Positions 4,011 through 47,926 of a stretch of 64,000 nt of DNA are shown piece after piece. How positions within the stretch are numbered: the first letter of the stretch is position 1; each line of letters starts with the position of its first letter. The notes beneath the pieces were generated by a model. That model had not been told where the DNA came from and did no database searches. It saw nothing but the letters and a program-made list of their open reading frames with translations. This DNA comes from an uncultured Clostridium sp. (GTDB lineage Bacteria; Bacillota; Clostridia; Clostridiales; Clostridiaceae), in assembly GCA_900539375.1 (NCBI GenBank), contig UQBY01000006.1:47722-111721 (forward strand), read 5' to 3'. The position numbers and the translations under genes were made by a program.

Positions 4011-4051
4011 GAAAAAATGAGATGTTTTAAAGTATATTTAAAACATCTCAT
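4011..4051 (-). terminator. Rho-independent terminator downstream of amylase gene 4068..8018
   Basis: Perfect ~15-bp inverted repeat atgagatgttttaaa / tttaaaacatctcat. It is followed on the minus strand by a T-run (plus-strand gaaaaaa). Confidence 0.75.
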
Positions 4052-4067: not shown

Positions 4068-7000
4068 TTATTTTATTGTATAACTTATTGATTTTCTTGT
4101 TACTTTTCCATTTGAGTCTTTTACATCTACATATAGTGTCTTATTTCCTGTTTTACCAGCTTTCCATATTGCTATATTTGATGATGAATAGTCTTGAATT
4201 ACAAACCAGTTTCCTGATGCATCTTTTACTAAGAATTTATATTGTAATTCTCCTTCTCCTGTTGCTTGTGCCATTAATAGAAGTTGTGTTCCACTTGCTT
4301 GTGGTGACTTCTTATCTGCTGTAAAGCTAGTTACTGTTGGTGCTGCTGCAGTTATTGTATAACTCATTGATTTTCTTGTTACTTGTCCATTTGAGTCTTT
4401 TACATCTACATATAATGTCTTATTTCCTGTTTTACTAGCTTTCCATACTGCTATATTTGATGATGAATAGTCTTGAATTACAAACCAATTTCCTGATGCA
4501 TCTTTTACTAAGAATTTATATTGTAATTCTCCTTCTCCTGTTGCTTGTGCCATTAATAGAAGTTGTGTTCCACTTGCTTGTGGTGACTTCTTATCTGCTG
4601 TAAAGCTAGTTACTTTTGGTGCTGCTGCTTTTACTGTATAACTCATAGAAGCTCTTGTTACTTTTCCATTTGAGTCTTTTACATCTACATATAATGTCTT
4701 ATTTCCAGCTTTACCTGTTCTCCATATATAAGTATTTGATTTTCCATAATCTCTTAATACTGCCCAGTTTCCTGATGCATCTTTTATTAAGAACTTATAT
4801 TGTAATGTTCCTGTTCCTGTTGCCTTTGCTGTTAACTTTACTTGTGTTCCACTTACTTGTGGTGATTTCTTATCTGCTGTAAAGCTAGTTACTTTTGGTG
4901 CTGCTGCTTTTACTGTATAACTCATAGAAGCTCTTGTTACTTTTCCATTTGAGTCTTTTACATCTACATATAATGTCTTATTTCCAGCTTTACCTGTTCT
5001 CCATATATAAGTATTTGATTTTCCATAATCTCTTAATACTGCCCAGTTTCCTGATGCATCTTTTATTAAGAACTTATATTGTAATGTTCCTGTTCCTGTT
5101 GCTTTTGCTGTTAATTTTACTTGTGTTCCACTTACTTGTGGTGATTGTTTACTTGCTGTAAAAGAATTTATAACTAAATTATCAGCTTCATTAGATTTTA
5201 TTGTATAACTAAAATTATCACTTACTTTGTTTCCATCTTCATCAGTTACATCAACATATACTGTATATGTTCCTGCTTTAGTTGGTTTCCATGTATAAGT
5301 GTTTGATGTTGTAGTACTTAATGTTGTAGTACTTCCATTAAATTTAACATAATACTTATAAGTAAGAGAACCTGTACCACCTTCTGCATCTGCTGATAAA
5401 ACTATTGATGTTCCTAATTGTTGTGGTGATGACTTACTTGAAGTAAAACTATTTAATGTAAGTTCTGTTGGAGTTACAACTGTAGCTATTTCATATGACA
5501 TTTCTTTAGAAACAGTTGTATTATCTGCATTTTGAACTTCTACTCTTACTTTATAAGTTCCTTCTTTAGTAGCTTTAAGAGTATAAGTATTTTTACGAGA
5601 ATAATATTGAACTACTTGTTCCTTACCATTAGGTTCAGTTACAAAGAACTTATAGAATAATAATCCATTTCCTACATTTTCTCCACCAATTGCATTTACT
5701 GTAAATGTAATGCTTGAATTTTTTGGTTGAGGTGCTGTTTTATTTACCTTTATGCTCTTAATTACTGGAGCATCACTATCTACATCACCAGTTTTAATAA
5801 CAAATTGTTTAGTTAATTCTGCTGTTTCACCTTTATCATTTTTAGCTTCAACTTTTATTGTATAAGTTCCAGCTTCACTTGGAGTCCAAGTTACTGTATT
5901 TTTAGTTGAAAAACTACTTAATGTTTCACTAGTTGAACCTTTTGTTACTGTAAATTTATATTGTATTGTCCCTTGTCCACTTGCATTTGCTGTAATCTTT
6001 ATATCTGTATCTGTAGATTGTGGTGATTGTAAATCAGTTGTTATTTCTTTAACCTTTAATGATGTATCTACTACTGTTTCTGACCAAGTTCCATTTTCAT
6101 ATTTCATAGATTTTGAAGATGTTATAGCATATCCTGATTGTTGTGCTCCTGGAATTTGATTGCTTCCATCATTAAAAATTATTAATGCACTACTTGTACC
6201 TTCTGGTAATGTGTAACTATAAACTCCATTACCTTCATCTTTCATAGCTTTTCCTGGCCATTCTCCATTAAGCTCAGTTACTGATGAACCACTTTTTGTA
6301 TATACATAAGCATTTGGTGTTCCCCAACCTGATGGTTTTACAAAATATGCTGAAGCTGCTCCTGATATAACAGTGCTTCCACCGCCACCAGTGCTTCCGC
6401 CACCACCAGTGCTTCCGCCACCGCCAGTGCTTCCACCGCCACTTGTAGCGCCTACATATAAAACAGCTATTGATGAACCTTCCATATTACCAGTTAATGT
6501 TCCATTTGAAACAGTAAATGTTCCGCCTGAAGCTGCTTGGTTTTCATAAGTACCATTTGGTAAACTTGTACTTGTGCTAATTGAAGTGCTTCCACCTACA
6601 TTAGTTAGAAGTATACCCTTATTTCCACGTTCTATTTTAAATACTTTATCATTATTTATAGAAGAAATTTTTTCTCCTTCGGAAGCCATAGCATTGTGGA
6701 ATAAGTTAACTGCCATGACATTTTTAGACGCAAAATCATCTGAACCTCTTTGACCCATTGTATTATAAGCTTCACCTTGAGGGTTCATAGGATTATCTCC
6801 AAATGATCTATCAGTTGGTCTATTAAAGAATAGTGGTACTATTTTAGCACGTCCTGCTAACATTGCCCAAGCCATTTCTCTTTGAATTTGAGTCATACCT
6901 CTTGTAGCACCTGCATTAGCATATAAGTCATGACTTTCTACCCAACCTACAAGCTTATCATTAGTTATACTTCCTGGTGTTTCACCATTTCCTGCTGCAT

Positions 7001-8018
7001 ATTGTGTTGTTGCAAGAGTATCTGTATGAGGATCTACCTTACCATTATTTCCATTACATCCAAGAACGTCTACTCCATTCTTTTCTTCTTGCCACATTTC
7101 ATAACCTACTGCTGATCTTAAATGCCAACCATAAGTACTAGCTGTAACACTCATATACTTAGTATAATTGTTAAAGTTTGTTCCAGGTTCATCACCTTGT
7201 AAAACTTCTCCATAAATAAATGCATCTGATTTTACTGATTTTACTCTGTTTATTATGTTAGGCCAGAAATCACTTGAAGGATTGTTACCTTCTTCAGATG
7301 CTGGTAATTCAATACTCTTAGCTGCATCAAATCTAAATCCATCAGCTCCTGCATTTAAACACTCTACTAAGTAGTCTCCTATTATCTTTTGTGAAGATAA
7401 ACTTGCTGTATTTATATCTGGCATACCAATACAACATCCTTGAGTAACCTCACTTCTTACATTCCAGTGATTTATTCTAGGTGACTTACGTGCTTCATTA
7501 TATAATGTTGCATCTGCATTTGAAGCATTAGCTCCATCTGCTAAGTGATTTGCTACTACGTCTACTATTATCTTCACTCCATATTTATGAGCTTCTGTAC
7601 ACATAGCCTTAAATTCTGCAACTGTTCCAAGATATTCATTACCTAATGTAAAATATGTTGGTTGATATAACCAATACCAAGATGGATTTGAATTAGTATT
7701 AGTTTTATCTGCATTATTCCAACCACTTCCTTTTCTACATGCTTGTGCTGGTGATGTTTGAATAGAAGTGTATCCTGCATCAGCAATTTCTTTCATATTC
7801 TCTTTAATTGAATTAAATGACCAGTTCCAAGCATGAAGTATAACTCCATCCTTAATGGAATCGGCTTGTGTAGCAGCCTTTTCTGATGCATATGTTGATT
7901 CATTATTTGTGCTTACAGTAGCAGCACTTGCATTAGTTGAAAAGCTTCCCACAAATAAACTTGAAGTTACTGCTAATGTAGCAACTATACTTGTAAGTCT
8001 TTTTCGTGTCTTCCCCAT
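4068..8018 (-). CDS. Secreted AmyE-like GH13 alpha-amylase with a Gly/Ser/Thr linker, a CBM25/26-like starch-binding module and 7 C-terminal triple-tyrosine (Y_Y_Y-type) Ig-like repeats
   Basis: 1316 aa. Signal peptide MGKTRKRLTSIVATLAVTSSLFVGSFSTNASA. GVILHAWNWSFNSIKENMKEIADAGYTSIQTSP...WYWLYQP...KIIVDVVANH...GFRFDAAKS...YGEVL...WVESHD closely resembles B. subtilis AmyE regions I-IV. These are followed by (GGGST)n, then AYVY..WPGKAM..YSYTLP..IIFNDG..QIP, then 7 x ~93-aa repeats carrying LQYKF..W..Y..YVDVKD. Confidence 0.9.
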   Translation of the reverse strand: MGKTRKRLTSIVATLAVTSSLFVGSFSTNASAATVSTNNESTYASEKAATQADSIKDGVILHAWNWSFNSIKENMKEIADAGYTSIQTSPAQACRKGSGWNNADKTNTNSNPSWYWLYQPTYFTLGNEYLGTVAEFKAMCTEAHKYGVKIIVDVVANHLADGANASNADATLYNEARKSPRINHWNVRSEVTQGCCIGMPDINTASLSSQKIIGDYLVECLNAGADGFRFDAAKSIELPASEEGNNPSSDFWPNIINRVKSVKSDAFIYGEVLQGDEPGTNFNNYTKYMSVTASTYGWHLRSAVGYEMWQEEKNGVDVLGCNGNNGKVDPHTDTLATTQYAAGNGETPGSITNDKLVGWVESHDLYANAGATRGMTQIQREMAWAMLAGRAKIVPLFFNRPTDRSFGDNPMNPQGEAYNTMGQRGSDDFASKNVMAVNLFHNAMASEGEKISSINNDKVFKIERGNKGILLTNVGGSTSISTSTSLPNGTYENQAASGGTFTVSNGTLTGNMEGSSIAVLYVGATSGGGSTGGGGSTGGGGSTGGGGSTVISGAASAYFVKPSGWGTPNAYVYTKSGSSVTELNGEWPGKAMKDEGNGVYSYTLPEGTSSALIIFNDGSNQIPGAQQSGYAITSSKSMKYENGTWSETVVDTSLKVKEITTDLQSPQSTDTDIKITANASGQGTIQYKFTVTKGSTSETLSSFSTKNTVTWTPSEAGTYTIKVEAKNDKGETAELTKQFVIKTGDVDSDAPVIKSIKVNKTAPQPKNSSITFTVNAIGGENVGNGLLFYKFFVTEPNGKEQVVQYYSRKNTYTLKATKEGTYKVRVEVQNADNTTVSKEMSYEIATVVTPTELTLNSFTSSKSSPQQLGTSIVLSADAEGGTGSLTYKYYVKFNGSTTTLSTTTSNTYTWKPTKAGTYTVYVDVTDEDGNKVSDNFSYTIKSNEADNLVINSFTASKQSPQVSGTQVKLTAKATGTGTLQYKFLIKDASGNWAVLRDYGKSNTYIWRTGKAGNKTLYVDVKDSNGKVTRASMSYTVKAAAPKVTSFTADKKSPQVSGTQVKLTAKATGTGTLQYKFLIKDASGNWAVLRDYGKSNTYIWRTGKAGNKTLYVDVKDSNGKVTRASMSYTVKAAAPKVTSFTADKKSPQASGTQLLLMAQATGEGELQYKFLVKDASGNWFVIQDYSSSNIAVWKASKTGNKTLYVDVKDSNGQVTRKSMSYTITAAAPTVTSFTADKKSPQASGTQLLLMAQATGEGELQYKFLVKDASGNWFVIQDYSSSNIAIWKAGKTGNKTLYVDVKDSNGKVTRKSISYTIK
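4071..6060 (-). repeat. Coding tandem array of 7 x ~279-bp units (triple-tyrosine Ig-like repeats); the last four (4071-5186) are two pairs of near-identical duplications
   Basis: Units 4629-4907 and 4908-5186 encode 80 identical consecutive residues. Units 4071-4349 and 4350-4628 differ at only a handful of residues. The period is visible directly in the nucleotide sequence. Confidence 0.9.
6372..6445 (-). repeat. 15-bp GC-rich tandem microrepeat encoding the (GGGST)n linker
   Basis: gtgcttcc(a/g)cc(g/a)cc(a/g)cca is iterated about 4 times. The translated sequence is GGGSTGGGGSTGGGGSTGGGGST. Confidence 0.85.
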
Positions 8019-8052
8019 TAAAAATTTCCCCTTTCATTTCATAATTACTTTT

Positions 8053-8066
8053 TGTAATCGTTATAT
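8053..8066. promoter_or_regulatory. cre-like (CcpA/LacI-family) operator upstream of the AmyE-like amylase
   Basis: TGTAATCGTTATAT matches about 12/14 positions of the Firmicute cre consensus TGWAANCGNTNWCA. It lies ~35-50 nt upstream of the start codon at 8018. Confidence 0.4.
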
Positions 8067-8201
8067 AATGTATTATACAATTTTTTTTAATCAGTATCAA
8101 TAAAATATTAGAAATTATTTGTTTATTTATTTAATTCCATAATATATTTATCTAAATATTTTATCTTCAATTAATAAAAGGTGCTTTTTCAATCATAATT
8201 T

Positions 8202-8242
8202 TAAAAAAAGATGTGGAAATAAATAAATTATATTTCCACATC
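8202..8242 (-). terminator. Rho-independent terminator downstream of 8255..11173
   Basis: Inverted repeat gatgtggaaat / atttccacatc, with a minus-strand T-run (plus-strand aaaaaaa at 8203-8209). Confidence 0.75.
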
Positions 8243-8254
8243 ATATATATCATA

Positions 8255-11173
8255 TTAATTTATTTCAAATGCATCTAAAGTTATTGCATTTCCTTTTGAA
8301 GAATTATTTTTTAATCCTGTCCACTCTACTTTTATTGTATGTGTTCCTGAAGTTAATCCTGATAATGAAAATGCTACACTTTGATCTTTAGCACTTGCAC
8401 TATATAAATCTATATAATACACTTTTGAATCTACTGTTACTTTAGCTATTCCTTTATCTGATGACTTTGATGCTATTAACTTTATTCCTGTTCCTGTAAA
8501 TTTATAAGTTGCTGTTGCTGTACTAGATGCATATTTACAAGTTCCTCCACTATGTTTTGTTGAAGTTGCTACTTTCCATATTCCAGTATATGATATTTTA
8601 GAATCAGTATCTTGTACTAAATTTGCATTTACTACATAGTTCATTGATTTTCTTGTTACTTGTCCATTACTATCTTTTACATCTACATATAATGTCTTAT
8701 TTCCTGTTGCCTTTGTTGTCCATGTATAAGTGTTTGATGTTCCATAATCTCTTAATACTGACCAGTTTCCTGCTGCATCCTTTATTAAGAATTTATATTG
8801 TAATGTTCCTGTTCCTGTTGCTTTTGCTGTTAATTTTACTTGTGTTCCACTTGCTTGTGGTGATTTCTTATCTACTGTAAAACTACTTACTGTTGGAGGC
8901 ACAGCTTTTACTGTATAACTCATAGATTTTCTTGTTACTTGTCCATTTGTATCTTTTACATCTACATATAATGTTTTATTACCAACCTTATTAGCTTTCC
9001 ATGTGCAACTATTTAATATTGAATAATCTCTTATTACTGACCAGTTTCCTGTTGTATTATCTTTTACTAAGAACTTATATTGTAATACTCCTGTTCCACT
9101 TGCAGCTGCACTTAAAGTTACTTCTGTTCCGCTAGCTTGTGGTGACTTTTTATCTGCTGCAAATGAAACTACTTTTGGTTTTTCTGCTTCTTTAACAGTA
9201 TAACTCATTGCTTTTCTTGTTACTTTTCCATTGCTGTCTTTTACATCTACATATAATGTCTTATTTCCTGTTGCCTTTGTTGTCCATGTATAAGTGTTTG
9301 ATGTTCCATAATCTCTTAACACTGCCCAGTTTCCTGCTGCATCTTTTATTAAGAATTTATATTTTAATGTTCCTGTTCCTGTTGCTTTTGCTGTTAATTT
9401 CACTTGTGTACCAGTTACTTGTGGTGATTGTTTATCAGTTGTAAAACTACTTACTATAGGTGCTACTACTGTACTAGCTTTAGTGTAAGAATAAGTTACA
9501 ATTATAGTACCATTTTTAAATGTTCCTTTTGCATTACTTGGTGTTGTTTTTAAAGTATATCCACTTATTGTTTTTGCTGTTGTTGTATAGCTTGTTCCTA
9601 CTTCTCCTGTCTTTGTTGTTGAAGAAGCTATTTCATTTCCATTTTCATCTACATACTTAACTATTACTGTTCCTTTATCAACATCATCATTATCTTTAGA
9701 ATATACATAAGTTACTGTTATTGTTCCATTTTTATATGTTCCACTTGCATTATTTGGTGTTGTTTTTAAAGTATAGCCTGCTATTGTCTTTGCTGTTGTT
9801 GTATAGCTTGTTCCTACTTCCCCTGTCATTGTTCTTGAAGAAGCTATTTCATTTCCATCTTCATCTACATATTGAACTTTTACTGTTCCTTTAGATACAT
9901 CACTATTTTTAGAATATACATAAGTTACTGTTGTTGTTCCACTTTTATATGTTCCACTTGCATTATTTGGTGTTGTCTTTAAAGTATATCCACTAACACT
10001 TACTGCACTAGTTGTATAACTATCTCCAACCTTCCCTGTCATTGTTTTTGAAGTAGCTATTTCATTTCCTTCTTCATCTACATATTGAACTTTTACTGTT
10101 CCTTGACTAACTGGTGGTGGAGTTACTCCTCCATTATTACCTACTTGTGCTAATGGTACTGTAATAATATCTGTATCATCTTTTTCATGTGAAGTTGATG
10201 GGTCAACAGCACAATCACCTGTAGCATTATCTAACATTGATGGGTCATGAGGTAAACAATCTATTGCTGATATTCCTCTAGTTGAAAGTTGCATTACTCC
10301 AATACCATTACTTGTAATATAATTTTTATCTATTCCTAAAACTGATAATGGAATTGACATTTCATAGAAAGAATCATATTTTCTATCATGACCTTTAGTC
10401 ATCATATCTACCCAATTGGCACTATCACTATAAACATCATCTGGTGAAGTAGATGATTCTAATCCCCATATTTGAGCTGGTATAGAAGTTTCTGCCATAT
10501 TATATTTTACTCCTATATCTTTAAAGGATTGACAATATTCTGCATCATAGCTAGTTCCACCTGATTCATCAGCTGCTGTAAACATTGCTGGAGTTCCTAA
10601 ACCTACTTTTCCACTCATTAAAAATAAATGGTCAACTCTTGTTTCATACTCTATTTGTAAGGCATCCCAAAGTAATTTCCCATTTGCCATTTTTCCATTC
10701 ATTGCAGTTTTATTTCCTACATTTAATGCAATTACAAGAGGTACATCTAAAACTCTTCCACCATCACTTAATGGCCCATCTCCCTCTCTTGCCCAAGTAT
10801 CAGTAGTATTTACCATTTGCCATCCTATATAAAGATTATCGTCATCCCATGCTGCATACAAAGCATATGAGTCAAGAACACAGTTTTCATGTCCACCCTT
10901 CCAGTTATTAGCTATGTCCCATGCTGCACCTTGAGCTATTAACATGTCATCAGACCAGTCACTTGCATCTCCATCAATTGTTATTGTTTTTTCTTTACCT
11001 ACTCCATTAGGATTAGTTGCATACTTTCCTCTTGTTTCAGCTACTGTTGCTTTTTCAACTATATTTTCTTTGCTTATTGTTGCTGCATTTACACTAGCAA
11101 AGCTACTTAAAACGCTTACCGAAACTGCTACAGTTGTCGCAATACTCATAAGTTTTTTTGACATTGTTTTCAT
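8255..11173 (-). CDS. Secreted non-catalytic multidomain carbohydrate-binding/adhesin protein (CBM9/DOMON-like N-domain, 3 MucBP, 3 triple-tyrosine repeats, C-terminal beta-sandwich CBM-like domain)
   Basis: 972 aa. Signal peptide MSIATTVAVSVSVLSSFASVNA. ITIDGDASDWSDD...ALYAAWDDDNLYIGWQMVN follows the CBM9-like pattern. There are three GTVKVQYVDE(E/D)GNEIA...GYTLKT...VTYVYSK (MucBP) units and three Y_Y_Y repeats. The tail ends ...ITLDAFEIN. I could not see any GH13 catalytic regions. Confidence 0.7.
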   Translation of the reverse strand: MKTMSKKLMSIATTVAVSVSVLSSFASVNAATISKENIVEKATVAETRGKYATNPNGVGKEKTITIDGDASDWSDDMLIAQGAAWDIANNWKGGHENCVLDSYALYAAWDDDNLYIGWQMVNTTDTWAREGDGPLSDGGRVLDVPLVIALNVGNKTAMNGKMANGKLLWDALQIEYETRVDHLFLMSGKVGLGTPAMFTAADESGGTSYDAEYCQSFKDIGVKYNMAETSIPAQIWGLESSTSPDDVYSDSANWVDMMTKGHDRKYDSFYEMSIPLSVLGIDKNYITSNGIGVMQLSTRGISAIDCLPHDPSMLDNATGDCAVDPSTSHEKDDTDIITVPLAQVGNNGGVTPPPVSQGTVKVQYVDEEGNEIATSKTMTGKVGDSYTTSAVSVSGYTLKTTPNNASGTYKSGTTTVTYVYSKNSDVSKGTVKVQYVDEDGNEIASSRTMTGEVGTSYTTTAKTIAGYTLKTTPNNASGTYKNGTITVTYVYSKDNDDVDKGTVIVKYVDENGNEIASSTTKTGEVGTSYTTTAKTISGYTLKTTPSNAKGTFKNGTIIVTYSYTKASTVVAPIVSSFTTDKQSPQVTGTQVKLTAKATGTGTLKYKFLIKDAAGNWAVLRDYGTSNTYTWTTKATGNKTLYVDVKDSNGKVTRKAMSYTVKEAEKPKVVSFAADKKSPQASGTEVTLSAAASGTGVLQYKFLVKDNTTGNWSVIRDYSILNSCTWKANKVGNKTLYVDVKDTNGQVTRKSMSYTVKAVPPTVSSFTVDKKSPQASGTQVKLTAKATGTGTLQYKFLIKDAAGNWSVLRDYGTSNTYTWTTKATGNKTLYVDVKDSNGQVTRKSMNYVVNANLVQDTDSKISYTGIWKVATSTKHSGGTCKYASSTATATYKFTGTGIKLIASKSSDKGIAKVTVDSKVYYIDLYSASAKDQSVAFSLSGLTSGTHTIKVEWTGLKNNSSKGNAITLDAFEIN
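8630..9465 (-). repeat. 3 x ~279-bp triple-tyrosine repeat units (coding), highly similar to those in the two flanking amylase genes
   Basis: The peptides SPQ(V/A)(S/T)GTQVKLTAKATGTGTL(K/Q)YKFLIKDAAGNW recur here and are shared with 4068..8018 and 11272..15057. Confidence 0.85.
9475..10105 (-). repeat. 3 x ~65-70-aa MucBP-type repeats (coding)
   Basis: GTVKVQYVDEEGNEIATSKTMTGKVGDSYTT..., GTVKVQYVDEDGNEIASSRTMTGEVGTSYTT... and GTVIVKYVDENGNEIASSTTKTGEVGTSYTT.... Confidence 0.8.
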
Positions 11174-11196
11174 TTACTCTTTCCCCCTATTTAAAT

Positions 11197-11244
11197 ATAA
11201 AAATTTTATGCAGTATTAATATTTTCACTTAAATACTGCATAAA
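11197..11244 (-). terminator. Hairpin/terminator between amylase 11272..15057 and 8255..11173
   Basis: Inverted repeat ttatgcagtat / atactgcataa with a 13-15 nt loop and a short minus-strand T-run. Little room is left for a separate promoter, so read-through is possible. Confidence 0.55.
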
Positions 11245-11271
11245 ATATTTTTTAATTAAAGATTTTTTACA

Positions 11272-14200
11272 TTACTTTATTGTATAAGATATAGATTTTC
11301 TTGTTACTTTTCCATTACTATCTTTTACATCTACATATACTGTCTTATTTCCAGCTTTTCCTGTTGTCCATGTATATGTGTTTGATGTTCCATAATTTCT
11401 TAAAACTGCCCAGTTTCCTGTTGCATTATCTTTTATTAAGAACTTATATTGTAATGTTCCTGTTCCTGTTGCTTTTGCTGTTAATTTTACTTGTGTTCCA
11501 CTTGCTTGTGGTGATTGTTTACTTGCTGTAAGGCTACTTACTACCGGAGCAGTTGCTGATGCTGCCTTTACTGTATAAGCCATTGACTTTCTTGTTACTT
11601 TTCCATTTGTATCTTTTACATCTACATATAATGTTTTGTTTCCTGTTTGGTTTGGTTTCCATGTGCAACTGTTTAAAGTTGAATAATCTCTTATTACTGC
11701 CCAATTTCCTGTTGTATTATCTTTTACTAAGAACTTATATTGTAATACTCCTGTTCCACTTGCACCAGCCATTAATAAAACACTTGTTCCACTTACTTGT
11801 GGTGATTTTTTATCTGCCTCAAAAATAACTACTGTTGGTGCTGATGAAGTAACATTATAACTCATTGATTTTCTTACAACTGTTCCATTTGTATCTTTTA
11901 CATCTACATATAATGTCTTGTTTCCTGTTGCATTGGTTGTCCATGTATATGTGTTTGATGCTCCATAATCTCTTAATATTGCCCAGTTTCCTGATGCATC
12001 TTTTATTAAGAATTTATATTGTAATGTTCCACTTCCACCAGTTGCCTTTGCTGTTAATGTTACTTGTGTTCCACTTGCTTGTGGTGATTTTTTATCTGCT
12101 GTAAAACTACTTACATTAATATTTGAAACAACTGTTTTCTTATAAACATAAGTTACTGTTATTGTTCCATTTTTATATGTTCCATTTGCATTTGATGGTG
12201 TTGTCTTTAAAGTATATCCACTTATTGTTTTTGCTGTTGTTGTGTAGCTTGTTCCTACTTCTCCAGTCTTTGTTGTTTGTGATGCTATTTGATTTCCATC
12301 TTCATCTACATACTTAACTACTACTGTTCCTTCTTCTGATACATCATCTTTAGAATATACATAAGTTACTGTTGTTGTTGCTTTAGCAAATTTTCCTGAT
12401 GCATTTGATGGTGTTGTCTTTAAAGTGTATCCATCTATTGTTTTTGCTGTTGTTGTATAGCTTGTTCCCACTGTTCCTGTCTTTGTTGTTTGTGATGCTA
12501 TTTGATTTCCATCTTCATCTACATACTTAACTACTACTGTTCCTTCTTGTTCATTATCAGATGATTCTGACCATACTCCATTATTATATTCCATTGAACC
12601 CTTAACAACATATCCCGGTTGTTGTGCTCCTGGTTCTTGTCCCCATGTTCCATTAAAGATTACTCTTACTGAATAATCATCTCCTGCTGCTTCACCTGGT
12701 TCATATCTATATACATACCAGTCTCCTTCTTTAGTCATAGCAGTTCCTGGCCATGCTGGTCCTATAGTTGTTTCTGCTGTGCTATTTTCATATACATAAA
12801 TATTAGGTGCTGATGTCCATTTACTACTTTTTGCTTTTATAACAATATCATTTTTAGGCTTTTCTGCCATTGTATAAGTATAAGTCTTAGTATCTACAGT
12901 TCCTTCTGATGATGTACCACTAACTTCTAAAGTTGTGCTTTCTCCTATTGATAATCCTTCACCAACTGTAATAGTATCTCCATTAGAGAACTTAGTCTTA
13001 GCTCCACCATCTATTGAATAATATCCTGTTACACCTTTGCTAGCACTTAAAGTAACTGTCTCTGCTTTATATATTTTCTTACTTCCTGGATTTGCACCAA
13101 CTGATGGTTTGCTTACTCCTGTTGATTCTAAAAGAACAACTCCATTTTCTCCAGCTGTTACTGCTACGCTACCACCACTTACTACATATTCTTCTCCAGT
13201 ATAGTAATCTCTTACTCCATCACCATCATTAAATGTATCTCCAACAGATACTGTACATGGACCTGATTTTCCTGGAAGAGATATTACAACTTTATCTTCT
13301 ACACCATTTTTACTATAAACTCTACTGAAAGTATAAGGTGAAGCTGATATTTGAGTATGACTACCTGCACCTACTGCTAAGTGATTACTTCTAAATTGTC
13401 CAACTTTTTGCCAATTTGAAAGAATAGAATTATTCATTGAATTCCAATTCATATTACTACGAGTTGGTTGCTTATCACTTGTTCCATCACCTTGTCTTCC
13501 TGATTCATCACCATAATAAATTTGAACTCCACCAGGTGTAAGTAATAATGCTGTACCTGCATTAGCACTTCTAGCACCTAATGCTGTATCGTGAGATGAA
13601 ATATAGCTTAATACATTAAATGTAGGATCACTATTAATTTGTCTTGCATAGCTTGAATATGTTCCTTCTAATGCTGAACCAGTTTTATTTTCATTTCCTT
13701 GGAAAGAGAAGTTAATCATTGAATCAAATCCACCAGTTGTATAGTAAGAATCCTTACCTACACCATGATCCCAGTGTTCTCCTGTCATCCAGAAATCATC
13801 TGTCCACTTAGCTCCTGGTTTATTTGGATTATTTTGTCTCCATTCTTTAAGAGCTTGTACACCAGCTTTCTTTAATTTACCCCATTCAGTAACATTTATG
13901 TGTTTAGCTGTGTCACATCTAAATCCATCTACACCATATTCTCTTACCCAATCAGTAAGCCATTTTACTAGATATGTTGTAACACATTTTTGCATACCAT
14001 AATTTTGACAGAACTCATTTAACTCTTGTTCTTCTTGAGCTAATTTTGCTGAGCTCCACTTTTTCTTTAATATACTTGGCATTCCTGGGTCTGTAGTTCC
14101 TTCTGTAACAAAGTCTGGTAAACCATCTACACAAGTTTCAACTCCTGCAGCTTCTGGTGCTTGATTAGCATATGCTGTAAATCTTCCTTGTGTCATTCTT

Positions 14201-15057
14201 ACCCATTTAGAACCCCACCAGTTAGTTTCCCAGTCACCATTTTGAGCATCCATCATACCTTGTGAACCATTTTGAGAAGCTTCTGCAACATAGTCGTTAT
14301 ACCACTTATATTGGCTTTCTGACCAATCATAATAGATTTCTTTCCAGTTAGAAGCTAACTTACCATATCCAAATTCATCTGCATCCTTTGGATTTGCATA
14401 ACCAGCATGGTTCATAACTATATCAAATATAACTCTTATACCATGTTCATGAGCTGTATCTATAAAGTTCTCTAAATCTTGTGCAGTACCCATATTTTCA
14501 TCAACTTCAGTGTAATCTAAAGCATAATATCCATGATAAGCATAATGTTTAAATCCACCAGCTGATAATGCACCATGTATTTGTTCATAAGGTGCTGTTA
14601 ACCATATTGCATTTACTCCTAAATTATCAAAATATCCATCTTCTATTTTACTAGTTAAACCTTTTAAATCTCCACCATGGAAATATCCTTCTTTGTTTTG
14701 ATAATTTGCTATTTCATTACCACTTTTATCCAAACCTCTTCCGTAAGAATGGTCATTGCTAGTATCTCCATTAACAAATCTGTCTGTTACAACAAAATAT
14801 ACACTTGCATTATCCCAAGAGAATGTTCTATTTTCGTCATAAGTAACATCTCCATAAGACCCACTCTTTGGAACTGAATAACTTAATTCACCAGCATCAT
14901 CCATCTTAACTTTTAATACGTTTTCATCTGATTCAGAAGCAGATGTTGAATCACTAGATTGACTTGGAATAGTTGCTGCACTTGCAAATGTACTACCAAA
15001 CATACTAGTCAAAACTGTTACTGATGTAATTAGTTTTGTTAATTTCTTTAGTTTCAT
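11272..15057 (-). CDS. Secreted GH13 alpha-amylase family enzyme with a CBM25/26-like module, 2 MucBP and 3 triple-tyrosine repeats
   Basis: 1261 aa. Signal peptide LTSMFGSTFASAAT. GH13 regions are DRFVNGD, IRVIFDIVMNHAGY (I), GVDGFRCDTAKH (II), MTGEHWDHG (III) and YISSHD (IV). Then come IYVYE..WPGTAMTKEGDWYVY..VIFNG, two GTVVVKYVDEDGNQIA units and three Y_Y_Y repeats. Confidence 0.9.
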   Translation of the reverse strand: MKLKKLTKLITSVTVLTSMFGSTFASAATIPSQSSDSTSASESDENVLKVKMDDAGELSYSVPKSGSYGDVTYDENRTFSWDNASVYFVVTDRFVNGDTSNDHSYGRGLDKSGNEIANYQNKEGYFHGGDLKGLTSKIEDGYFDNLGVNAIWLTAPYEQIHGALSAGGFKHYAYHGYYALDYTEVDENMGTAQDLENFIDTAHEHGIRVIFDIVMNHAGYANPKDADEFGYGKLASNWKEIYYDWSESQYKWYNDYVAEASQNGSQGMMDAQNGDWETNWWGSKWVRMTQGRFTAYANQAPEAAGVETCVDGLPDFVTEGTTDPGMPSILKKKWSSAKLAQEEQELNEFCQNYGMQKCVTTYLVKWLTDWVREYGVDGFRCDTAKHINVTEWGKLKKAGVQALKEWRQNNPNKPGAKWTDDFWMTGEHWDHGVGKDSYYTTGGFDSMINFSFQGNENKTGSALEGTYSSYARQINSDPTFNVLSYISSHDTALGARSANAGTALLLTPGGVQIYYGDESGRQGDGTSDKQPTRSNMNWNSMNNSILSNWQKVGQFRSNHLAVGAGSHTQISASPYTFSRVYSKNGVEDKVVISLPGKSGPCTVSVGDTFNDGDGVRDYYTGEEYVVSGGSVAVTAGENGVVLLESTGVSKPSVGANPGSKKIYKAETVTLSASKGVTGYYSIDGGAKTKFSNGDTITVGEGLSIGESTTLEVSGTSSEGTVDTKTYTYTMAEKPKNDIVIKAKSSKWTSAPNIYVYENSTAETTIGPAWPGTAMTKEGDWYVYRYEPGEAAGDDYSVRVIFNGTWGQEPGAQQPGYVVKGSMEYNNGVWSESSDNEQEGTVVVKYVDEDGNQIASQTTKTGTVGTSYTTTAKTIDGYTLKTTPSNASGKFAKATTTVTYVYSKDDVSEEGTVVVKYVDEDGNQIASQTTKTGEVGTSYTTTAKTISGYTLKTTPSNANGTYKNGTITVTYVYKKTVVSNINVSSFTADKKSPQASGTQVTLTAKATGGSGTLQYKFLIKDASGNWAILRDYGASNTYTWTTNATGNKTLYVDVKDTNGTVVRKSMSYNVTSSAPTVVIFEADKKSPQVSGTSVLLMAGASGTGVLQYKFLVKDNTTGNWAVIRDYSTLNSCTWKPNQTGNKTLYVDVKDTNGKVTRKSMAYTVKAASATAPVVSSLTASKQSPQASGTQVKLTAKATGTGTLQYKFLIKDNATGNWAVLRNYGTSNTYTWTTGKAGNKTVYVDVKDSNGKVTRKSISYTIK
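11275..12115 (-). repeat. 3 x ~279-bp triple-tyrosine repeat units (coding)
   Basis: SPQASGTQV(T/K)LTAKATG..LQYKFLIKD..GNWA(I/V)LR(D/N)YG.SNTYTWTT...NKT(L/V)YVDVKD occurs twice, plus one more divergent unit (SPQVSGTSVLLMAGASGTGVLQYKFLVKDNTTGNWAVIRDY..NKTLYVDVKD). Confidence 0.85.
12120..12545 (-). repeat. 2 MucBP-type repeats (coding)
   Basis: EGTVVVKYVDEDGNQIASQTTKTG(T/E)VGTSYTTTAKTI.GYTLKTTPSNA occurs twice. Confidence 0.8.
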
Positions 15058-41882: not shown

Positions 41883-43379
41883 TTATTCACATCTTCCATA
41901 TAACTTAGTAAATTTATATATCTTATTTGCAAGATTTTCATTTATATCTTCTTTCTTAGCTCTCCATTGCCAGTTTGTACCTAATGTTGATGGTAAATTA
42001 ATTCTTGCTTCATTTCCTAAATTTAAGAAGTCTTGCATTGGAGCTATAGCTGTATCTGCAACACTACTCCAAATACCTCTAATGAATCCCCAGTTATAAC
42101 CCTCTTCTTCATTTAATCCTAAATATCTTATTGCATTTCTTACTTCTTTCTTACTTCCAGTTTTCTCAAACCAGCCTAAGAAAGTATCATTATCATGAGT
42201 TCCTGTATAAGCTATGCAATTTTTAATATAATTGTGTGGTAAATATTCACTATCTCCACCACCAAAGCCAAATTCTAATATCTTCATTCCAGGATATCCA
42301 GTTTCAGCTAAGAATTCTTTAACTTCTTCTGTTAAGAAACCAAGATCTTCTGCAATAACATCAATTTCTCCAAGTTCCTTTTTAACAGCATTAAATAATG
42401 ACATTCCTGGTCCTTTAACCCATTTTCCATTAACAGCTGTTGGTTCACCATAAGGAATTTGCCAATAAGCTTCAAATCCTCTAAAGTGGTCTATTCTAAC
42501 TATATCATATAGTTTTAAACTTTCTTTTATTCTTGAAATCCACCATTTATAATTGTTTTTCTTCATAGCATCCCAATCATAAATAGGATTTCCCCATAAT
42601 TGTCCTGTTGCAGAGAACATATCAGGAGGACAACCAGCTACAAATAATGGTTTCATTTCTTTTACATTCATCTTAAAGTTTTCAGGTGCACTCCAAGCAT
42701 CTACACTATCTTCAGCTACATATATAGGAATATCTCCTATTATTTTTATTCCTAAAGAATTAGTATAATCCTTTAATGCAGTCCATTGTTCAAAGAATAA
42801 ATATTGAACAAATGACCAAAATCCTATTTCATCCTTTAAAGATTCTTTGTATTTTTTAATTGCTTCTGGTTCTCTCTTTTTAATATCATCTGGCCATTCT
42901 TGCCATGAAACTAATTTAAAATGATTTTTTAAAGACATATATAATGCATAATCTTCTAACCAAAAAGCATTTTCTTCTTTAAACTTTTCTATTTTTTGAG
43001 CTAATTCCTTTAAATTACCCTTTTTAAAATTATCATAAGCTCTTTTTAATACTTTGTTTTTAGATTCAAAAATTGTTCCATAGTCTATTCTTTCTGGGTT
43101 ATCACCATAGTTTTCCTTTTTGTAATCCTCTTCTTTTAAAATTCCCTCTTCTCTTAATATATCATAGTCGATAAAGTATGGATTTCCTGCAAAAGCTGAG
43201 AAACATTGATATGGTGAATCACCATAACTAGTGTGACCTAAAGGTAGTATTTGCCAATACTTTAAACCAGATGTTTCTAAAAACTCTGCAAATTTAAATG
43301 CTTCTTTTCCTAATGTACCTATACCATATTCACCAGGTAATGAAGCTATATGCATTAAAATTCCTGCTCCTCTGTCCAT
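41883..43379 (-). CDS. malQ: 4-alpha-glucanotransferase (amylomaltase, GH77)
   Basis: 498 aa. GAGILMHIASLPGEYGIGTLG, SPYQCFSAFAGNPYFID, VRIDHFRGF and GTHDNDT. Confidence 0.93.
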   Translation of the reverse strand: MDRGAGILMHIASLPGEYGIGTLGKEAFKFAEFLETSGLKYWQILPLGHTSYGDSPYQCFSAFAGNPYFIDYDILREEGILKEEDYKKENYGDNPERIDYGTIFESKNKVLKRAYDNFKKGNLKELAQKIEKFKEENAFWLEDYALYMSLKNHFKLVSWQEWPDDIKKREPEAIKKYKESLKDEIGFWSFVQYLFFEQWTALKDYTNSLGIKIIGDIPIYVAEDSVDAWSAPENFKMNVKEMKPLFVAGCPPDMFSATGQLWGNPIYDWDAMKKNNYKWWISRIKESLKLYDIVRIDHFRGFEAYWQIPYGEPTAVNGKWVKGPGMSLFNAVKKELGEIDVIAEDLGFLTEEVKEFLAETGYPGMKILEFGFGGGDSEYLPHNYIKNCIAYTGTHDNDTFLGWFEKTGSKKEVRNAIRYLGLNEEEGYNWGFIRGIWSSVADTAIAPMQDFLNLGNEARINLPSTLGTNWQWRAKKEDINENLANKIYKFTKLYGRCE

Positions 43380-43394
43380 TAATTATCCTCCTAA

Positions 43395-44438
43395 CTAAAT
43401 TATATTTTTATTGTTTTGTAAATCTCTATGTTCAACTGTAGATTCTCTTTTTACAAGTTCTGTTTCTAATATTAGATTTTTATGAGTCCCCTTTTTACTC
43501 AAAATATCTAATAATAAATTTACACTTTCTAGTGCAATATCTTTTCTTGGTTGTTTTATAGTAGTAATTCCGGGATTATAATATTCACTTATATCTAACC
43601 CATCAAAACCAACTAGTGAAATGTCTTTTCCAATTATTAATCCTGAATCAGCAATAGCTTTTGCTACTCCTAAAGCCATTGTATCTGCTGTTACAAATAT
43701 TGCAGATATATAATTTTTCTTTTCCTGTAAATACCTTTTCATAACCTGATATGCTATCTTTGTTGAATATTCTCCAACAAGTAACTTTTGTGTATCAAAC
43801 TGTATGCCAGCTTCATCTATAGCTTTTCTATATCCCTTCAATCTAGAATAACTCATTCCTAAGTCATTTTCTTCACCAATCATTACTGCTATATCTCTAT
43901 GACCTAAGTTTATTAAAAACTTTGTTGCTTTATATGCTGCCTTCTCATTGTCTATACCTACTGTTGAATAAAGTCCCCTTCCTTTAGCAACTGTAGTATT
44001 TACAGATGTTAATATAACAGGCACCTCTAAAGCTTCCATTTTTTCTGGTGTAACACACTCAAAATTACCACCAAGACATATTGCACCTTGAAGCCTTTTT
44101 TCTTTTATAAATGACCTTAAAGTGTCAATATCCTCATCAAAATTGCCATAGCTTTGCTGCAATATCATAGTATACTTAGTATCATTTATAGTATTAGCTA
44201 TAAGATTTAACATTTCAGAAAAAAATGGATTAAACACACCTTTTACCAATACTCCTATATTCATAGAGTTATTTTGTTTTAAAATTCTAGCACTGTTATT
44301 TGGGATATAATTGCTCTCTTTAATTATCTTGTTAACCTTTTCTCTAGTACTCTCCTTAACATCTGGATGATTATTTATCACCCTAGATACTGTGCTAACA
44401 CCAACACCTGCTAACCTGGCAACATCCTTAATATTCAT
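43395..44438 (-). CDS. LacI-family transcriptional regulator (MalR-like by context)
   Basis: MNIKDVARLAGVGVSTVSRVINNHPDVKESTREKV is the HTH, followed by a periplasmic-binding-fold sugar sensor domain. Confidence 0.88.
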   Translation of the reverse strand: MNIKDVARLAGVGVSTVSRVINNHPDVKESTREKVNKIIKESNYIPNNSARILKQNNSMNIGVLVKGVFNPFFSEMLNLIANTINDTKYTMILQQSYGNFDEDIDTLRSFIKEKRLQGAICLGGNFECVTPEKMEALEVPVILTSVNTTVAKGRGLYSTVGIDNEKAAYKATKFLINLGHRDIAVMIGEENDLGMSYSRLKGYRKAIDEAGIQFDTQKLLVGEYSTKIAYQVMKRYLQEKKNYISAIFVTADTMALGVAKAIADSGLIIGKDISLVGFDGLDISEYYNPGITTIKQPRKDIALESVNLLLDILSKKGTHKNLILETELVKRESTVEHRDLQNNKNII

Positions 44439-44477
44439 TTATTAAACCTCCTAAAAGTATCCCTTTTTAGGACATTT

Positions 44478-44491
44478 TGGTATCGTTCCCA
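44478..44491. promoter_or_regulatory. LacI/CcpA-type operator candidate upstream of the regulator-malQ pair
   Basis: TGGTATCGTTCCCA fits TGNNANCGNTNNCA, with half-site symmetry around the central CG. It is similar to the site at 47856. Confidence 0.4.
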
Positions 44492-44582
44492 TAAGTATGT
44501 CGTATAAAAATCCCTATGTAACATAGGAATTTTTATACATACTTATAATCTGCTAATATTTATTAAATGAGAGCTTAAACTA

Positions 44583-45458
44583 TTAACCCTTTACTGAACC
44601 TGCTGTTAATCCAGTAGCTATGAATTTTTGTAATGCCATGAATATGATAACTATTGGTAATGAAGCTAAGATAGCTGCTGCTGAATATTCTGTCCAACAT
44701 ATACCTTGTGACTTATTAACAAAACTATATAATCCAATAGACATAGTCCATTTTGCTTGGTCTTTAATAATTGCTGTTGTATAAATAATTTCACTATATG
44801 CATTTATGAATGCAAATAAGAATATTACAAGTAACATGTTCTTAATTAGTGGTAAAATTATTTGAATAAATGTTTGGAAAGTAGTTGCTCCATCAACATA
44901 AGCAGCTTCTACAAGGTCATCTGGAATACCATCCATATTACCTTTCATAAGCCATACATTATATGCACTACCACCACATTGAATTAATACAAGCCATAGT
45001 AAACTATCCATACCATTAAACTTGTAAACTATACTTAACATAGCTGGTAAAGCCATTGAAGTTGGGAACATTTGAAGTATTAATAAAAACATTAACCCCT
45101 TACTTCTTCCCTTAAATCTTATCTTAGAAAATGCAAAACCTGCTGGAATTGTTAATAATAATTGAACTACTGCTATTGTGGTACAAACCTTAAGAGAATT
45201 CCATACCCAAGTTGTAAATCCCATTTCTGTAAATACTTTTTTATAGTTAACTAAAGTAAATGTTTTTGGAAAGACACTTGTAGTAAATGAGTTACCTTTT
45301 ATAACTGAAGTTGTTAATACAAGTAATATTGGGAATAATACAATTATCATTAATATCCATAATCCAATTCTACATAACCATGCACTTGTCTTTTGTGCTG
45401 GTGTTAATCTATCTACATATGGTTCATATTTTACATCATTATTTTTAGACATCTGCAT
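44583..45458 (-). CDS. Maltodextrin/sugar ABC transporter permease (MalG-like)
   Basis: 291 aa, 6 TM, with the EAA loop VEAAYVDGATTFQTFIQIILP. Confidence 0.88.
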   Translation of the reverse strand: MQMSKNNDVKYEPYVDRLTPAQKTSAWLCRIGLWILMIIVLFPILLVLTTSVIKGNSFTTSVFPKTFTLVNYKKVFTEMGFTTWVWNSLKVCTTIAVVQLLLTIPAGFAFSKIRFKGRSKGLMFLLILQMFPTSMALPAMLSIVYKFNGMDSLLWLVLIQCGGSAYNVWLMKGNMDGIPDDLVEAAYVDGATTFQTFIQIILPLIKNMLLVIFLFAFINAYSEIIYTTAIIKDQAKWTMSIGLYSFVNKSQGICWTEYSAAAILASLPIVIIFMALQKFIATGLTAGSVKG

Positions 45459-45459
45459 A

Positions 45460-46392
45460 TTACTTTACCTCCTCAAATTGTCCAGATAACTTCATTTGTA
45501 CATAAGATATCAATGCAAGTATTACGAATACTATAATTCCTAATGCTGCACCTGTTGCATATAATTCTTTCTTAACAGCGAATTTATATATAACTGATGC
45601 TAAGATATCTGTTTTACCAGCATAAATACTTTCACCTGCTGGATTACCATTAGTAACTAAGTATGCTGAACCGAAGTTATTGAAGTTAAATGAGAATGAT
45701 GATATTAATAGTGGATAAGCTGTGTTTGCTAATGATGGTAATGTAATCTTTATAAATTGAATAAATTTACCTGCTCCATCAACATCTGCAGCTTCATAAT
45801 AATCTTTAGGAATTGATGCTAAAGATCCAATACAAATATTCATCATGTAAGGGAATCCAAGCCATATATTAATTAATATTAACCACATTCTTGCAAAGAA
45901 TGGATTTTCTAGCCATAAAATTCTATTACTATCTGACATTATACCTAATGAAACTAATATATTGTTTATAGCACCTTCTGAACCATGTAAAAGACCTTTC
46001 CAAGAAAGTATAGCAACTGTTACTGGAAGTGCCCATGGTAATATTAATATAGCTTTATAAATTGCTCTTTCTTTAACATTTTCATTATTTAAAAGTAATG
46101 CTGCTATAAGACCAACTAAAAATGAACCTCCAGTTGATAGTAAAGCAAAAATTACTGTCCATCCAAATACAGGAAATAATGATGATGAAAATTTACCATT
46201 AAAGATTTGCAAGAAATTATCTATTCCTATAAACTTCCAATTTCCATTTAATCTATTATCACCACAATAATCTGTAAATGAAATGAATATTGTATACAAT
46301 ATTGGTAGTACTGTAAATATAAATATTGCAATAGCTGCTGGTAATAAATAAGGTATTGCAATTCTTGTATTCTTCTTATTTTCTACTGCCAT
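45460..46392 (-). CDS. Maltodextrin/sugar ABC transporter permease (MalF-like, short form)
   Basis: ORF track 45460..46413. I moved the start to the ATG (MAVENKK) after an AAAGGGGA RBS. EAA loop YEAADVDGAGKFIQFIKITLP. Confidence 0.88.
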   Translation of the reverse strand: MAVENKKNTRIAIPYLLPAAIAIFIFTVLPILYTIFISFTDYCGDNRLNGNWKFIGIDNFLQIFNGKFSSSLFPVFGWTVIFALLSTGGSFLVGLIAALLLNNENVKERAIYKAILILPWALPVTVAILSWKGLLHGSEGAINNILVSLGIMSDSNRILWLENPFFARMWLILINIWLGFPYMMNICIGSLASIPKDYYEAADVDGAGKFIQFIKITLPSLANTAYPLLISSFSFNFNNFGSAYLVTNGNPAGESIYAGKTDILASVIYKFAVKKELYATGAALGIIVFVILALISYVQMKLSGQFEEVK

Positions 46393-47869: not shown

Positions 47870-47926
47870 ACTCTATTTTCATTTTACTACTTCGTGCAAA
47901 CATTTTCAAGTGTTTTTTCATGTTTT

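Follow-up and report, generated by a model that had tools for sequence, protein, structure and literature searches.

The 64-kb stretch of DNA analyzed here (the window), which comes from contig UQBY01000006.1 of an uncultured Clostridium sp., carries on its minus strand three neighboring open reading frames (ORFs) that were named by their length in amino acids (aa): A1316 (4068..8018; 1316 aa), predicted to be a secreted GH13_28 alpha-amylase of the Amy16/AmyE type; B972 (8255..11173; 972 aa), predicted to be a secreted, non-catalytic starch binder resembling Sas6; and C1261 (11272..15057; 1261 aa), predicted to be a secreted GH13_19 alpha-amylase resembling Amy4 (coordinates written with two dots refer to the minus strand throughout). 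A preliminary description of this DNA had proposed three secreted proteins of these lengths, in agreement with the ORFs found and with the typical signal peptides, each with an Ala-X-Ala-type cleavage site, that can be read from the three translations; no lipobox cysteine occurs in these signal peptides. The genes are predicted to form two units, C1261-B972 and A1316, delimited by terminator-like hairpins and separate promoter-like sites. Sites identified by consensus match only were located upstream of C1261 (15182..15210; TTGAAA-17-TATGAT) and upstream of A1316 (8072..8100; TTGATA-17-TATAAT, 11/12), while a hairpin followed by a T-run was read from the sequence after B972 (8202..8241) and another, with a 15-bp stem and a T-run, after A1316 (4017..4051). 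A search for catabolite-responsive elements returned matches that were no commoner than in shuffled sequence. No rRNA was detected in the window, and the relatives returned by one scan of a genome collection reached 89% identity at most, all of them metagenome-assembled genomes of uncultured Clostridium or Clostridiales.

Two putative amylases and a CBM74 binder

Both A1316 and C1261 are predicted to be active GH13 alpha-amylases, belonging to the family by sequence and retaining the catalytic Asp, Glu and Asp in conserved regions II, III and IV. The module order of C1261 is signal peptide, GH13, immunoglobulin (Ig)-like domain, CBM26, two MucBP and three Y_Y_Y units, and its residues 69-828 are colinear with Amy4 of Ruminococcus bromii (PDB 9qf3, E 1.7e-171) through the GH13, Ig-like and CBM26 domains. 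Moreover, C1261 matched Escherichia coli MalS (8im8, GH13_19; E 5e-115) and NCBIfam PRK09505 (E 4e-143), and the motifs GFRCDTAKH, GEHWD and SSHD are intact in its GH13_19 catalytic region (13138..14832; residues 76-640). A1316 consists of a signal peptide, GH13, a Gly/Ser linker, CBM26, three divergent Y_Y_Y units and four basic ones; its catalytic region, with the intact motifs GFRFDAAKS, YGEVLQ and WVESHD, matched the alpha-amylase of Bacillus subtilis (1bag, E 8.5e-96) and R. bromii Amy16 (9qf9, E 3.9e-68), both of which are GH13_28 enzymes. The subfamilies were assigned through the nearest characterized relatives and their usage in the literature (PMC10826348) rather than with CAZy hidden Markov models (HMMs). 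The CBM25/26-like modules previously suspected in both enzymes proved to be CBM26 according to Pfam (PF16738; cut-off 28.1 bits), with 83.5 bits in A1316 (6099..6362; residues 553-640) and 46.4 bits in C1261 (12568..12852; residues 736-830).

The binder B972 comprises a signal peptide, CBM74, three MucBP, three Y_Y_Y units and a CBM-like jelly-roll. Its N-terminal 320 aa, for which no Pfam match of any kind was obtained even at E <= 10, had been compared to CBM9, and a PDB sequence search pointed instead to CBM74 (10118..11083; residues 31-352), with residues 14-345 matching the CBM74 of R. bromii Sas6 (7uwv/7uwu, E 1e-52); the earlier guess was nevertheless a close one, since CBM74 has a CBM9-like core according to the Sas6 paper. 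The His-Glu pair of B972 (H95 and E96) aligns directly with H289 and E290 of Sas6, and among 31 non-redundant homologues of this CBM74 E96 and W169 are invariant, while position 95 is occupied by H, W or Y. The same pattern was described in the Sas6 paper for 99 CBM74 members, in which E290 and W373 are invariant and H289 is H, Y or W, and the equivalence of W169 with Sas6 W373 is derived from this invariance rather than from a direct alignment. In that study, the W373A variant lost all maltodecaose binding as well as binding to corn starch granules, and starch binding was mapped to the CBM74 groove. Homology thus shows that the CBM74 of B972 retains the residues predicted to bind double-helical alpha-glucan.

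Besides, the C-terminal 120 aa of B972 (8258..8617; residues 853-972; isoelectric point (pI) 9.3) were modeled as a beta jelly-roll, although at low confidence (AlphaFold2 predicted local distance difference test (pLDDT) 68), with a weak Pfam match to CE2_N (E 6e-4). The best Foldseek match of this model was a xanthan-binding module (7ehg; E 5e-5, template modeling (TM) score 0.55), followed by xanthan lyase 6f2p and CBM6/35, and the domain is probably a carbohydrate-binding module. No cohesin or other scaffolding module was detected in B972, which is a CBM74 binder and not the scaffold that it had been taken for. Altogether, homology shows A1316, B972 and C1261 to be the predicted counterparts of Amy16, Sas6 and Amy4, respectively, and the enzymology is ordinary, the proteins being members of the known families GH13_19, GH13_28, CBM26, CBM74, MucBP and Y_Y_Y/BIg. 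In this respect, the interpretation of the locus as serving starch capture and degradation holds at the level of prediction, with two putatively active GH13 enzymes and one non-catalytic starch binder, and so does the parallel drawn to multi-protein amylolytic systems of the cell surface, given the matches to Amy4, Sas6 and Amy16.

A shared basic tail of MucBP and Y_Y_Y modules

The MucBP modules (PF06458; cut-off 23 bits) occur in tandem, with three stretches in B972 (9470..10108; residues 356-568; 178.4 bits) and two in C1261 (12130..12546; residues 838-976; 129.8 bits), as had been described, and Tandem Repeats Finder (TRF) assigned them a period of 213 bp. They are followed by the unit of ~93 aa that characterizes the three proteins, of which the expected seven, three and three copies were recovered in A1316, B972 and C1261, respectively, by pattern search and by an HMM trained on the units (E 1e-33 to 1e-48 for each unit; TRF periods of 279-291 bp); the unit HMM found it in no other ORF of the window. 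The basic units lie at 8618..9460 in B972 (residues 572-852), at 11275..12117 in C1261 (residues 981-1261; pI 9.6-10.1, net charge +5 to +10 per unit) and at 4071..5177 in A1316 (units A4-A7; residues 948-1316), where they are preceded by the divergent, near-neutral units A1-A3 (5181..6059; residues 654-946). The preliminary description had all three proteins ending in such arrays, which is the case for A1316 and C1261, both finishing in ...SISYTIK, but not for B972, where the jelly-roll follows the array and the protein finishes in ...LDAFEIN. Likewise, the long stretches said to be common to different genes are borne out by units of the conserved type, which are 75-84% identical in amino acids between genes, but not by units 1-3 of A1316, which are only 27-47% identical to the rest; in this protein, the conserved type is confined to units 4-7 (3.9 copies with 92% matches according to TRF).

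The proposed Y_Y_Y-like Ig fold was supported by both sequence and model. The Pfam family Y_Y_Y (PF07495) scored 93.6, 33.1 and 31.0 bits in the three proteins against a gathering cut-off of 26.6, and the AlphaFold2 model of one unit was a seven-strand beta-sandwich with a pLDDT of 97.4, which together place the unit among the Y_Y_Y/BIg Ig-like domains. The best-fitting PDB match of this model was a BIg domain of Sas6 (TM 0.75-0.78, root-mean-square deviation 1.9 Å, 24% identity), while an Ig-like domain of BuGH158 had a slightly lower E-value; PKD domains of clostridial collagenases (ColG) and FN3 domains also matched, whereas RbmA was a distant and weak match (TM 0.5-0.58). Unit A3 additionally matched Sas6 BIgB by sequence (E 1.5e-7). 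Matches to PRK14081 ranged from E 1.6e-74 to 2.7e-29, the best reaching 251 bits against an equivalog cut-off of 842, so that the three proteins do not belong to this protein family and have the repeat alone in common with it. The units carry neither the aromatic platform motifs typical of starch CBMs nor any CBM among their fold-search matches.

The unit belongs to a large family. The search of a word-indexed protein database with the unit profile returned 30 short fragments only and was uninformative about architectures, and an exhaustive search of representatives was used instead, which yielded 8714 of them (E <= 1e-3), the longest arrays having 45 matched stretches. The amylolytic domains seen in the present proteins are all missing from 133 of the best 150 family representatives, and in 37 of those 133 the partners include BspA-type leucine-rich repeats (LRR), Big_2, PKD, SH3_3, glucosaminidase, SpoIID, S8 and C1 peptidases, and lectins. 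Because the partner domains are so diverse, the unit is a generic extracellular Ig module and is not specific to starch.

As to the way in which the proteins may be held at the cell, the absence of a known anchor noted earlier was reproduced in the Pfam and LPXTG searches of the three proteins, and the 93-aa unit was not assigned to any characterized anchor. None of the three has a C-terminal LPXTG-type motif, which sets them apart from sortase-anchored proteins, and no dockerin or cohesin family, of the kind that defines the components of an amylosome- or cellulosome-type complex, was detected by Pfam at E <= 0.01. SLH, CWB2, LysM, SH3b, GW, choline-binding, WxL and SLAP domains were also absent at Pfam E <= 0.01, and none appeared in the unassigned segments at E <= 10.

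What distinguishes the tail is its charge. The conserved units have a pI of 9.5-10.1 and a net charge of +4 to +11 each, summing to ~+21 to +30 per tail, whereas the catalytic and CBM74 domains are acidic (pI 4.3-5.2). We also examined 340 proteins with Y_Y_Y arrays, in 230 of which the array forms the end of the protein, the last unit being C-terminal. An LPXTG signal was found in 0/340, so that a comparison of unit charge between arrays with and without this signal had no comparison group. In a set of 87 proteins with terminal arrays (drawn from P0151-P0296 and P0031-P0411 and dereplicated at 60% identity of the last unit), the mean unit charge rose steadily from +0.1 in the eighth unit from the end to +5.7 in the last one (Wilcoxon p = 3.6e-4 for the last versus the other units and p = 1.4e-6 for the first versus the others), while the gradient was absent from 74 proteins whose arrays precede other sequence (p = 0.23). 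This family-wide charge gradient is new and points to envelope tethering; such a polarity, without being proof, would be expected of a C-terminal tip that is turned toward an anionic surface, for instance the Gram-positive envelope. A conserved Trp ('GNW') was also considered as a hallmark of terminal units and was rejected, showing only a weak enrichment (52% vs 41%, p = 0.048).

Further components, genomic setting and evolution of the tail

The term trio used for the locus proved too narrow, as the species has at least two other types of enzyme with this tail, which is all that they have in common with B972. The GH31 alpha-glucosidase P0071 has a CBM25, two MucBP and three Y_Y_Y units, and the type I pullulanases P0054 and P0057 show the order CBM48, GH13, two MucBP, CBM26, two or three MucBP and three Y_Y_Y units. 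The tails of the GH31 enzyme and the pullulanases are 73-77% identical to that of B972, and among the matches listed for B972 all those restricted to the tail at ~73% identity or more were pullulanase, GH31 or GH13 proteins. The tails of A1316, C1261, the GH31 enzyme and the pullulanases all finish in S-x-S-Y-T-[IV]-K, whereas in B972 the tail is followed by the jelly-roll. The three subtypes of the unit also follow a fixed order, which is I-II-I in B972 and C1261, I-II-III in the GH31 enzyme and the pullulanase, and I-I-III-III in A1316.

The window additionally contains a maltodextrin locus (41883..50015) in which Pfam identified a 4-alpha-glucanotransferase of GH77, a LacI regulator, two ATP-binding cassette (ABC) permeases, a solute-binding protein, a PucR-type regulator and a MalK-like ATPase. 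Situated 27 kb from the three genes, it is likely the uptake and processing partner of the secreted enzymes, and a GH77 also adjoins the homologous clusters in two other loci (L024 and L025). Near this locus, an FMN (flavin mononucleotide) riboswitch (Rfam RF00050, 113 bits; 41202-41319, minus strand) lies upstream of riboflavin genes, with a ribBA-type ORF identified by Pfam at 38043-39245.

Relatives of the system were found in other clostridia. In the cultured Clostridium sp. MSJ-8 (GCA_018918325.1), five adjacent genes encode three GH13-Y_Y_Y proteins, a MucBP pullulanase and a CBM74-Y_Y_Y protein, with a GH77 ~8 kb downstream, and a similar cluster next to a GH77 was observed in the metagenomic relative L025. 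Furthermore, proteins combining GH13, CBM26 and Y_Y_Y are numerous in Clostridium celatum, unclassified Clostridium, Agathobacter rectalis and Turicibacter, where they are often annotated as 'starch-binding protein'. The module arrangement is thus also present in other clostridia. The claim that the architecture had gone undescribed was not supported: MucBP is already combined with GH13 in R. bromii Amy10/11/12 (PMC5814915), CBM74 is flanked in Sas6 by the Ig-like domain nearest to the Y_Y_Y unit in sequence and structure, and GH13-CBM26-Y_Y_Y proteins abound in databases. The literature searched contained no mention of CBM74 together with MucBP, and no description of a clostridial CBM74/Y_Y_Y system was found. 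In a separate observation, a protein of 1661 aa from a Joint Genome Institute metagenome (P0116), rich in Big_4 and bearing cohesin modules, has a C-terminal CBM74 with 78% identity to the one in B972; the occurrence of so similar a CBM74 in cohesin-based and Y_Y_Y-tailed systems suggests recent exchange between lineages.

The three genes interrupt a locus of the capsule/exopolysaccharide type (window 1-3870 and 15292-20383; L019). One side of this capsular polysaccharide (cps) locus encodes Wzz, a CpsD-type kinase, CpsB, a 391-aa ORF and two glycosyltransferases, and the other side has rmlB/rmlC-type genes and a GT2 and continues outside the window with Bac_transf and an ABC-2/Wzt exporter; the 391-aa ORF (17055-18230, minus strand) had no Pfam match and may be a Wzy-type polymerase. 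The GH31 gene is located within another cps locus of this species, distinct from the first, while the pullulanase lies outside any cps locus. In a relative with 55% identity (L023), an amylase of 1328 aa and a CBM74 binder of 922 aa have the same place behind prfC-CpsB, without the remainder of the cps locus, and are followed by a C1 peptidase that has a lectin domain; the MSJ-8 and L025 clusters have no cps context at all. A functional link to the capsule locus (capsule binding) was considered and found to be weakened by the predicted terminators and promoters, by L023, MSJ-8 and L025, and by the location of the pullulanase elsewhere. The cps position is most likely lineage-specific, and the fact that two of three loci lie in cps regions is a curiosity. 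Elsewhere in the window (55652-61471), a secreted protein of 1167 aa has one MucBP and a CarboxypepD_reg domain, an N-terminus finishing in ...TTSAYF, no Y_Y_Y unit and no LPXTG; a polysaccharide pyruvyl transferase and a GT2 adjoin it, and a pyruvylated polymer would be anionic and hence one that basic surface modules might bind.

Tail units of different genes are separated by synonymous divergence (dS) of 0.2-0.5, which falls to 0.08 between A4 and A5 and to 0.03 between A6 and A7, with ratios of nonsynonymous to synonymous divergence (dN/dS) of 0.3-0.7. Because of this low dS and of the dN/dS values, the tail units indicate that duplication, shuffling or gene conversion took place recently and under moderate constraint, and A4-A7 appear to be the product of two very recent tandem duplications. 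Copy number also varies among strains (loci L002, L004, L021 and L022; proteins P0032-P0036). Variants of A1316 with 1316, 1310 and 1223 aa were found, the last one lacking one 93-aa unit, and variants of B972 with 972, 979 and 901 aa, the last one being 71 aa shorter, which equals one MucBP period (213 bp). An 18-bp repeat in the Gly/Ser linker (window 6371-6442) probably explains the 6-aa difference in A1316.

Possible roles of the tail and comparison with known systems

Few gut bacteria attack resistant starch, and the best understood of them, R. bromii, does so by means of a cohesin-dockerin assembly. We read the three genes, tentatively and as a proposition just short of an even chance, as the core of a system for degrading granular (resistant) starch in a gut or rumen Clostridium, one that dispenses with cohesins and dockerins, and in which the tail would act as a stalk and probably as an electrostatic tether to the envelope. 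In this proposal, CBM74 and CBM26 would fix the proteins onto starch granules, where the two amylases and the debranching enzyme would work side by side, and the resulting oligosaccharides would be imported by the MalEFGK-type transporter and processed by the GH77, the genes for both lying at a distance of 27 kb. The shared tail, composed of two or three MucBP followed by three or four Y_Y_Y, all Ig-like beta-sandwiches, occupies the position of the R. bromii dockerin. It would form a semi-rigid stalk, with the strongly basic units at its C-terminus binding non-covalently to anionic envelope polymers (teichoic acids or capsule), and such a tether could gather all the components at the cell surface, their starch-binding ends directed outward, as a counterpart of the role of CBM37 in Ruminococcus albus. 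The modeled structure shows the fold of the stalk, while the tethering step is one that we infer; the C-terminal position, the high pI and the family-wide charge gradient bear indirectly on an attachment class resembling that of CBM37.

Several points weigh against this proposal. No experiment or homology ties Y_Y_Y/BIg domains to cell-wall binding, and the restriction of the tail to amylolytic proteins comes from database matches alone, the window and a few loci having been scanned. Moreover, the charge gradient was measured in a sample that was obtained by searches seeded with sequences of the window itself and was roughly dereplicated, and a basic charge is not universal, since the median of the mean unit charge among proteins with terminal arrays is +2, with an interquartile range of -3.7 to +5. 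Finally, homologous BIg domains are described as structural spacers in the Sas6 paper, related amylases of Clostridium butyricum were detected in culture supernatants (PMC10826348), and the dN/dS between tail units indicates moderate constraint only.

These last three points also favor a simpler explanation, in which the Y_Y_Y and MucBP modules serve as no more than inert spacers or aids to solubility and the proteins are freely released as independent multi-CBM enzymes, as proposed for C. butyricum, whose amylases are active in supernatants. We regard it as possible, if on the unlikely side. In its favor, Ig and FN3 spacers are common in GH13 enzymes, the BIg domains of Sas6 were read as spacers or hinges, the repeat family is large and generic, with LRR, peptidase, lysozyme and lectin partners among its representatives, and copy number differs between strains. 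Nevertheless, there is nothing to separate at the extreme C-terminus, the same three-unit cassette with the same subtype order (I-II-I or I-II-III) is found on five proteins of one pathway, and the charge climbs toward the C-terminus only where the array ends the protein.

Alternatively, the tail could be an additional binder of substrate or habitat (starch, other plant polysaccharides or host mucus) that provides avidity or retention in the mucus or digesta matrix and not at the cell, which we consider improbable. Among the database matches listed, the tail occurs in this species on starch-active proteins only, MucBP is an adhesin module according to its Pfam description and is present in R. 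bromii pullulanases, the C-terminal domain of B972 resembles the polysaccharide-binding modules MiXBM and CBM6/35, and basic surfaces could bind phosphorylated starch or sulfated/sialylated mucin. However, the unit is without starch-CBM platform motifs and without CBM matches in the fold search, starch binding in Sas6 was mapped to CBM74, with the BIg domains treated as spacers though never assayed alone, and the C-terminal domain of B972 was modeled with low confidence.

Still less probable in our assessment is the self-association of the tails through Ig-Ig contacts, by which amylases, pullulanase, GH31 and the CBM74 protein would co-assemble in place of cohesin-dockerin pairing. Selection for proximity is plausible, given that Amy4 and Amy16 of R. 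bromii show synergy only if they are kept close to each other (PMC12663171), in Sas6 the two BIg domains touch with 354 Å2 buried, near-identical tails occur on every component, and FN3 matrix proteins of the RbmA type are among the distant fold matches. On the other hand, like-charged modules (+5 to +11 each) should repel each other and the RbmA matches are weak. Finally, the suggestion that the enzymes act on, or belong to, the capsule/exopolysaccharide pathway of the bacterium itself and not on dietary starch draws on the cps genes flanking the three genes on both sides and on the GH31 gene with the same tail inside a second cps locus, but seems very improbable, as CBM74, CBM26, GH13_19 and GH13_28 are starch-specific families, predicted terminators and promoters of their own set the three genes off from the cps genes, the L023 pair follows prfC-CpsB without other cps genes, and the MSJ-8 and L025 clusters are near or next to GH77 rather than cps, with the pullulanase outside a cps locus.

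If the tail does tether or assemble the enzymes, it would represent a new anchoring principle, a handle for engineering surface display and an aid to predicting resistant-starch degraders from metagenomes; if it does neither, the locus encodes an ordinary multi-CBM amylase set. The locus is a concrete candidate for how clostridia lacking sortase motifs or dockerins bind starch and keep their enzymes close. As a broader and more doubtful generalization of the tether proposal, basic-tipped C-terminal Y_Y_Y arrays might constitute an unrecognized, widespread and sortase-independent hold on the anionic envelope, replacing cohesin-dockerin pairing in some gut clostridia and giving a 'tethered amylosome' of Amy4-, Amy16-, Amy10- and Sas6-like parts.

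The closest parallel to the system is the amylosome of R. bromii, to which it corresponds component by component, C1261 resembling Amy4, A1316 resembling Amy16 and the CBM74 of B972 resembling that of Sas6, while the pullulanase of the species follows the module order of Amy10 (CBM48, GH13, MucBP, MucBP, CBM26, MucBP) and the Y_Y_Y unit comes structurally closest to the BIg domain of Sas6. In R. bromii, the proximity-dependent synergy of Amy4 and Amy16 drives the breakdown of resistant starch (PMC12663171), and the Ig-like domains flanking CBM74 are presented in the Sas6 paper as spacers or orienting elements. The likeness is nonetheless in enzyme content only, since dockerins, cohesins and sortase-anchored scaffoldins are absent here and two or three MucBP with three or four basic Y_Y_Y units are found instead.

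The enzyme set of C. butyricum (Amy13A of GH13_19, Amy13B of GH13_28, Amy13C and Pul13A; PMC10826348) is also similar in combining GH13_19, GH13_28 and a GH13_14 pullulanase, all of them with CBM25/26, in the same genus-level setting, with cleaved signal peptides, no sortase motif and terminal domains suspected of anchoring. This species binds starch by a mechanism that the authors of the study leave open, its amylases being without a sortase motif (PMC10826348). In contrast to the dedicated CBM74 protein described here, C. butyricum has no CBM74 according to that study (PMC10826348), and Amy13B was not among the top 120 matches of A1316.

With respect to attachment, the counterpart is CBM37 of R. 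albus, a C-terminal module found on many secreted glycoside hydrolases in the place where the orthologues of R. flavefaciens have dockerins, and which attaches the enzymes to the cell wall (PMC4081043). Wall binding has been demonstrated for CBM37 and is only inferred for Y_Y_Y, and no sequence or fold relation between the two was found within the Pfam and Foldseek lists, where it was looked for. Regarding the repeat itself, the three proteins pass the PF07495 cut-off and the unit is a seven-strand sandwich like the PKD domain of ColG and FN3, but the Pfam family is best known from periplasmic sensors, whereas here it forms C-terminal arrays on secreted Gram-positive enzymes.

Among clostridia, the GH13-CBM26-Y_Y_Y 'starch-binding proteins' of C. 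celatum, Agathobacter rectalis and Turicibacter are made of the same building blocks, and the MSJ-8 cluster, with its three GH13-Y_Y_Y proteins, MucBP pullulanase and CBM74-Y_Y_Y protein, represents the same kind of system. In MSJ-8, however, the genes are contiguous and MucBP is restricted to the pullulanase, whereas in the species studied here they are distributed over at least three loci, of which two lie within cps regions, and MucBP together with a near-uniform, very basic unit has spread to every component. Overall, what is new in comparison with these systems is a clostridial lineage with a near-complete set of amylosome-like parts, in which one very basic tail of Ig repeats takes the place of dockerins.

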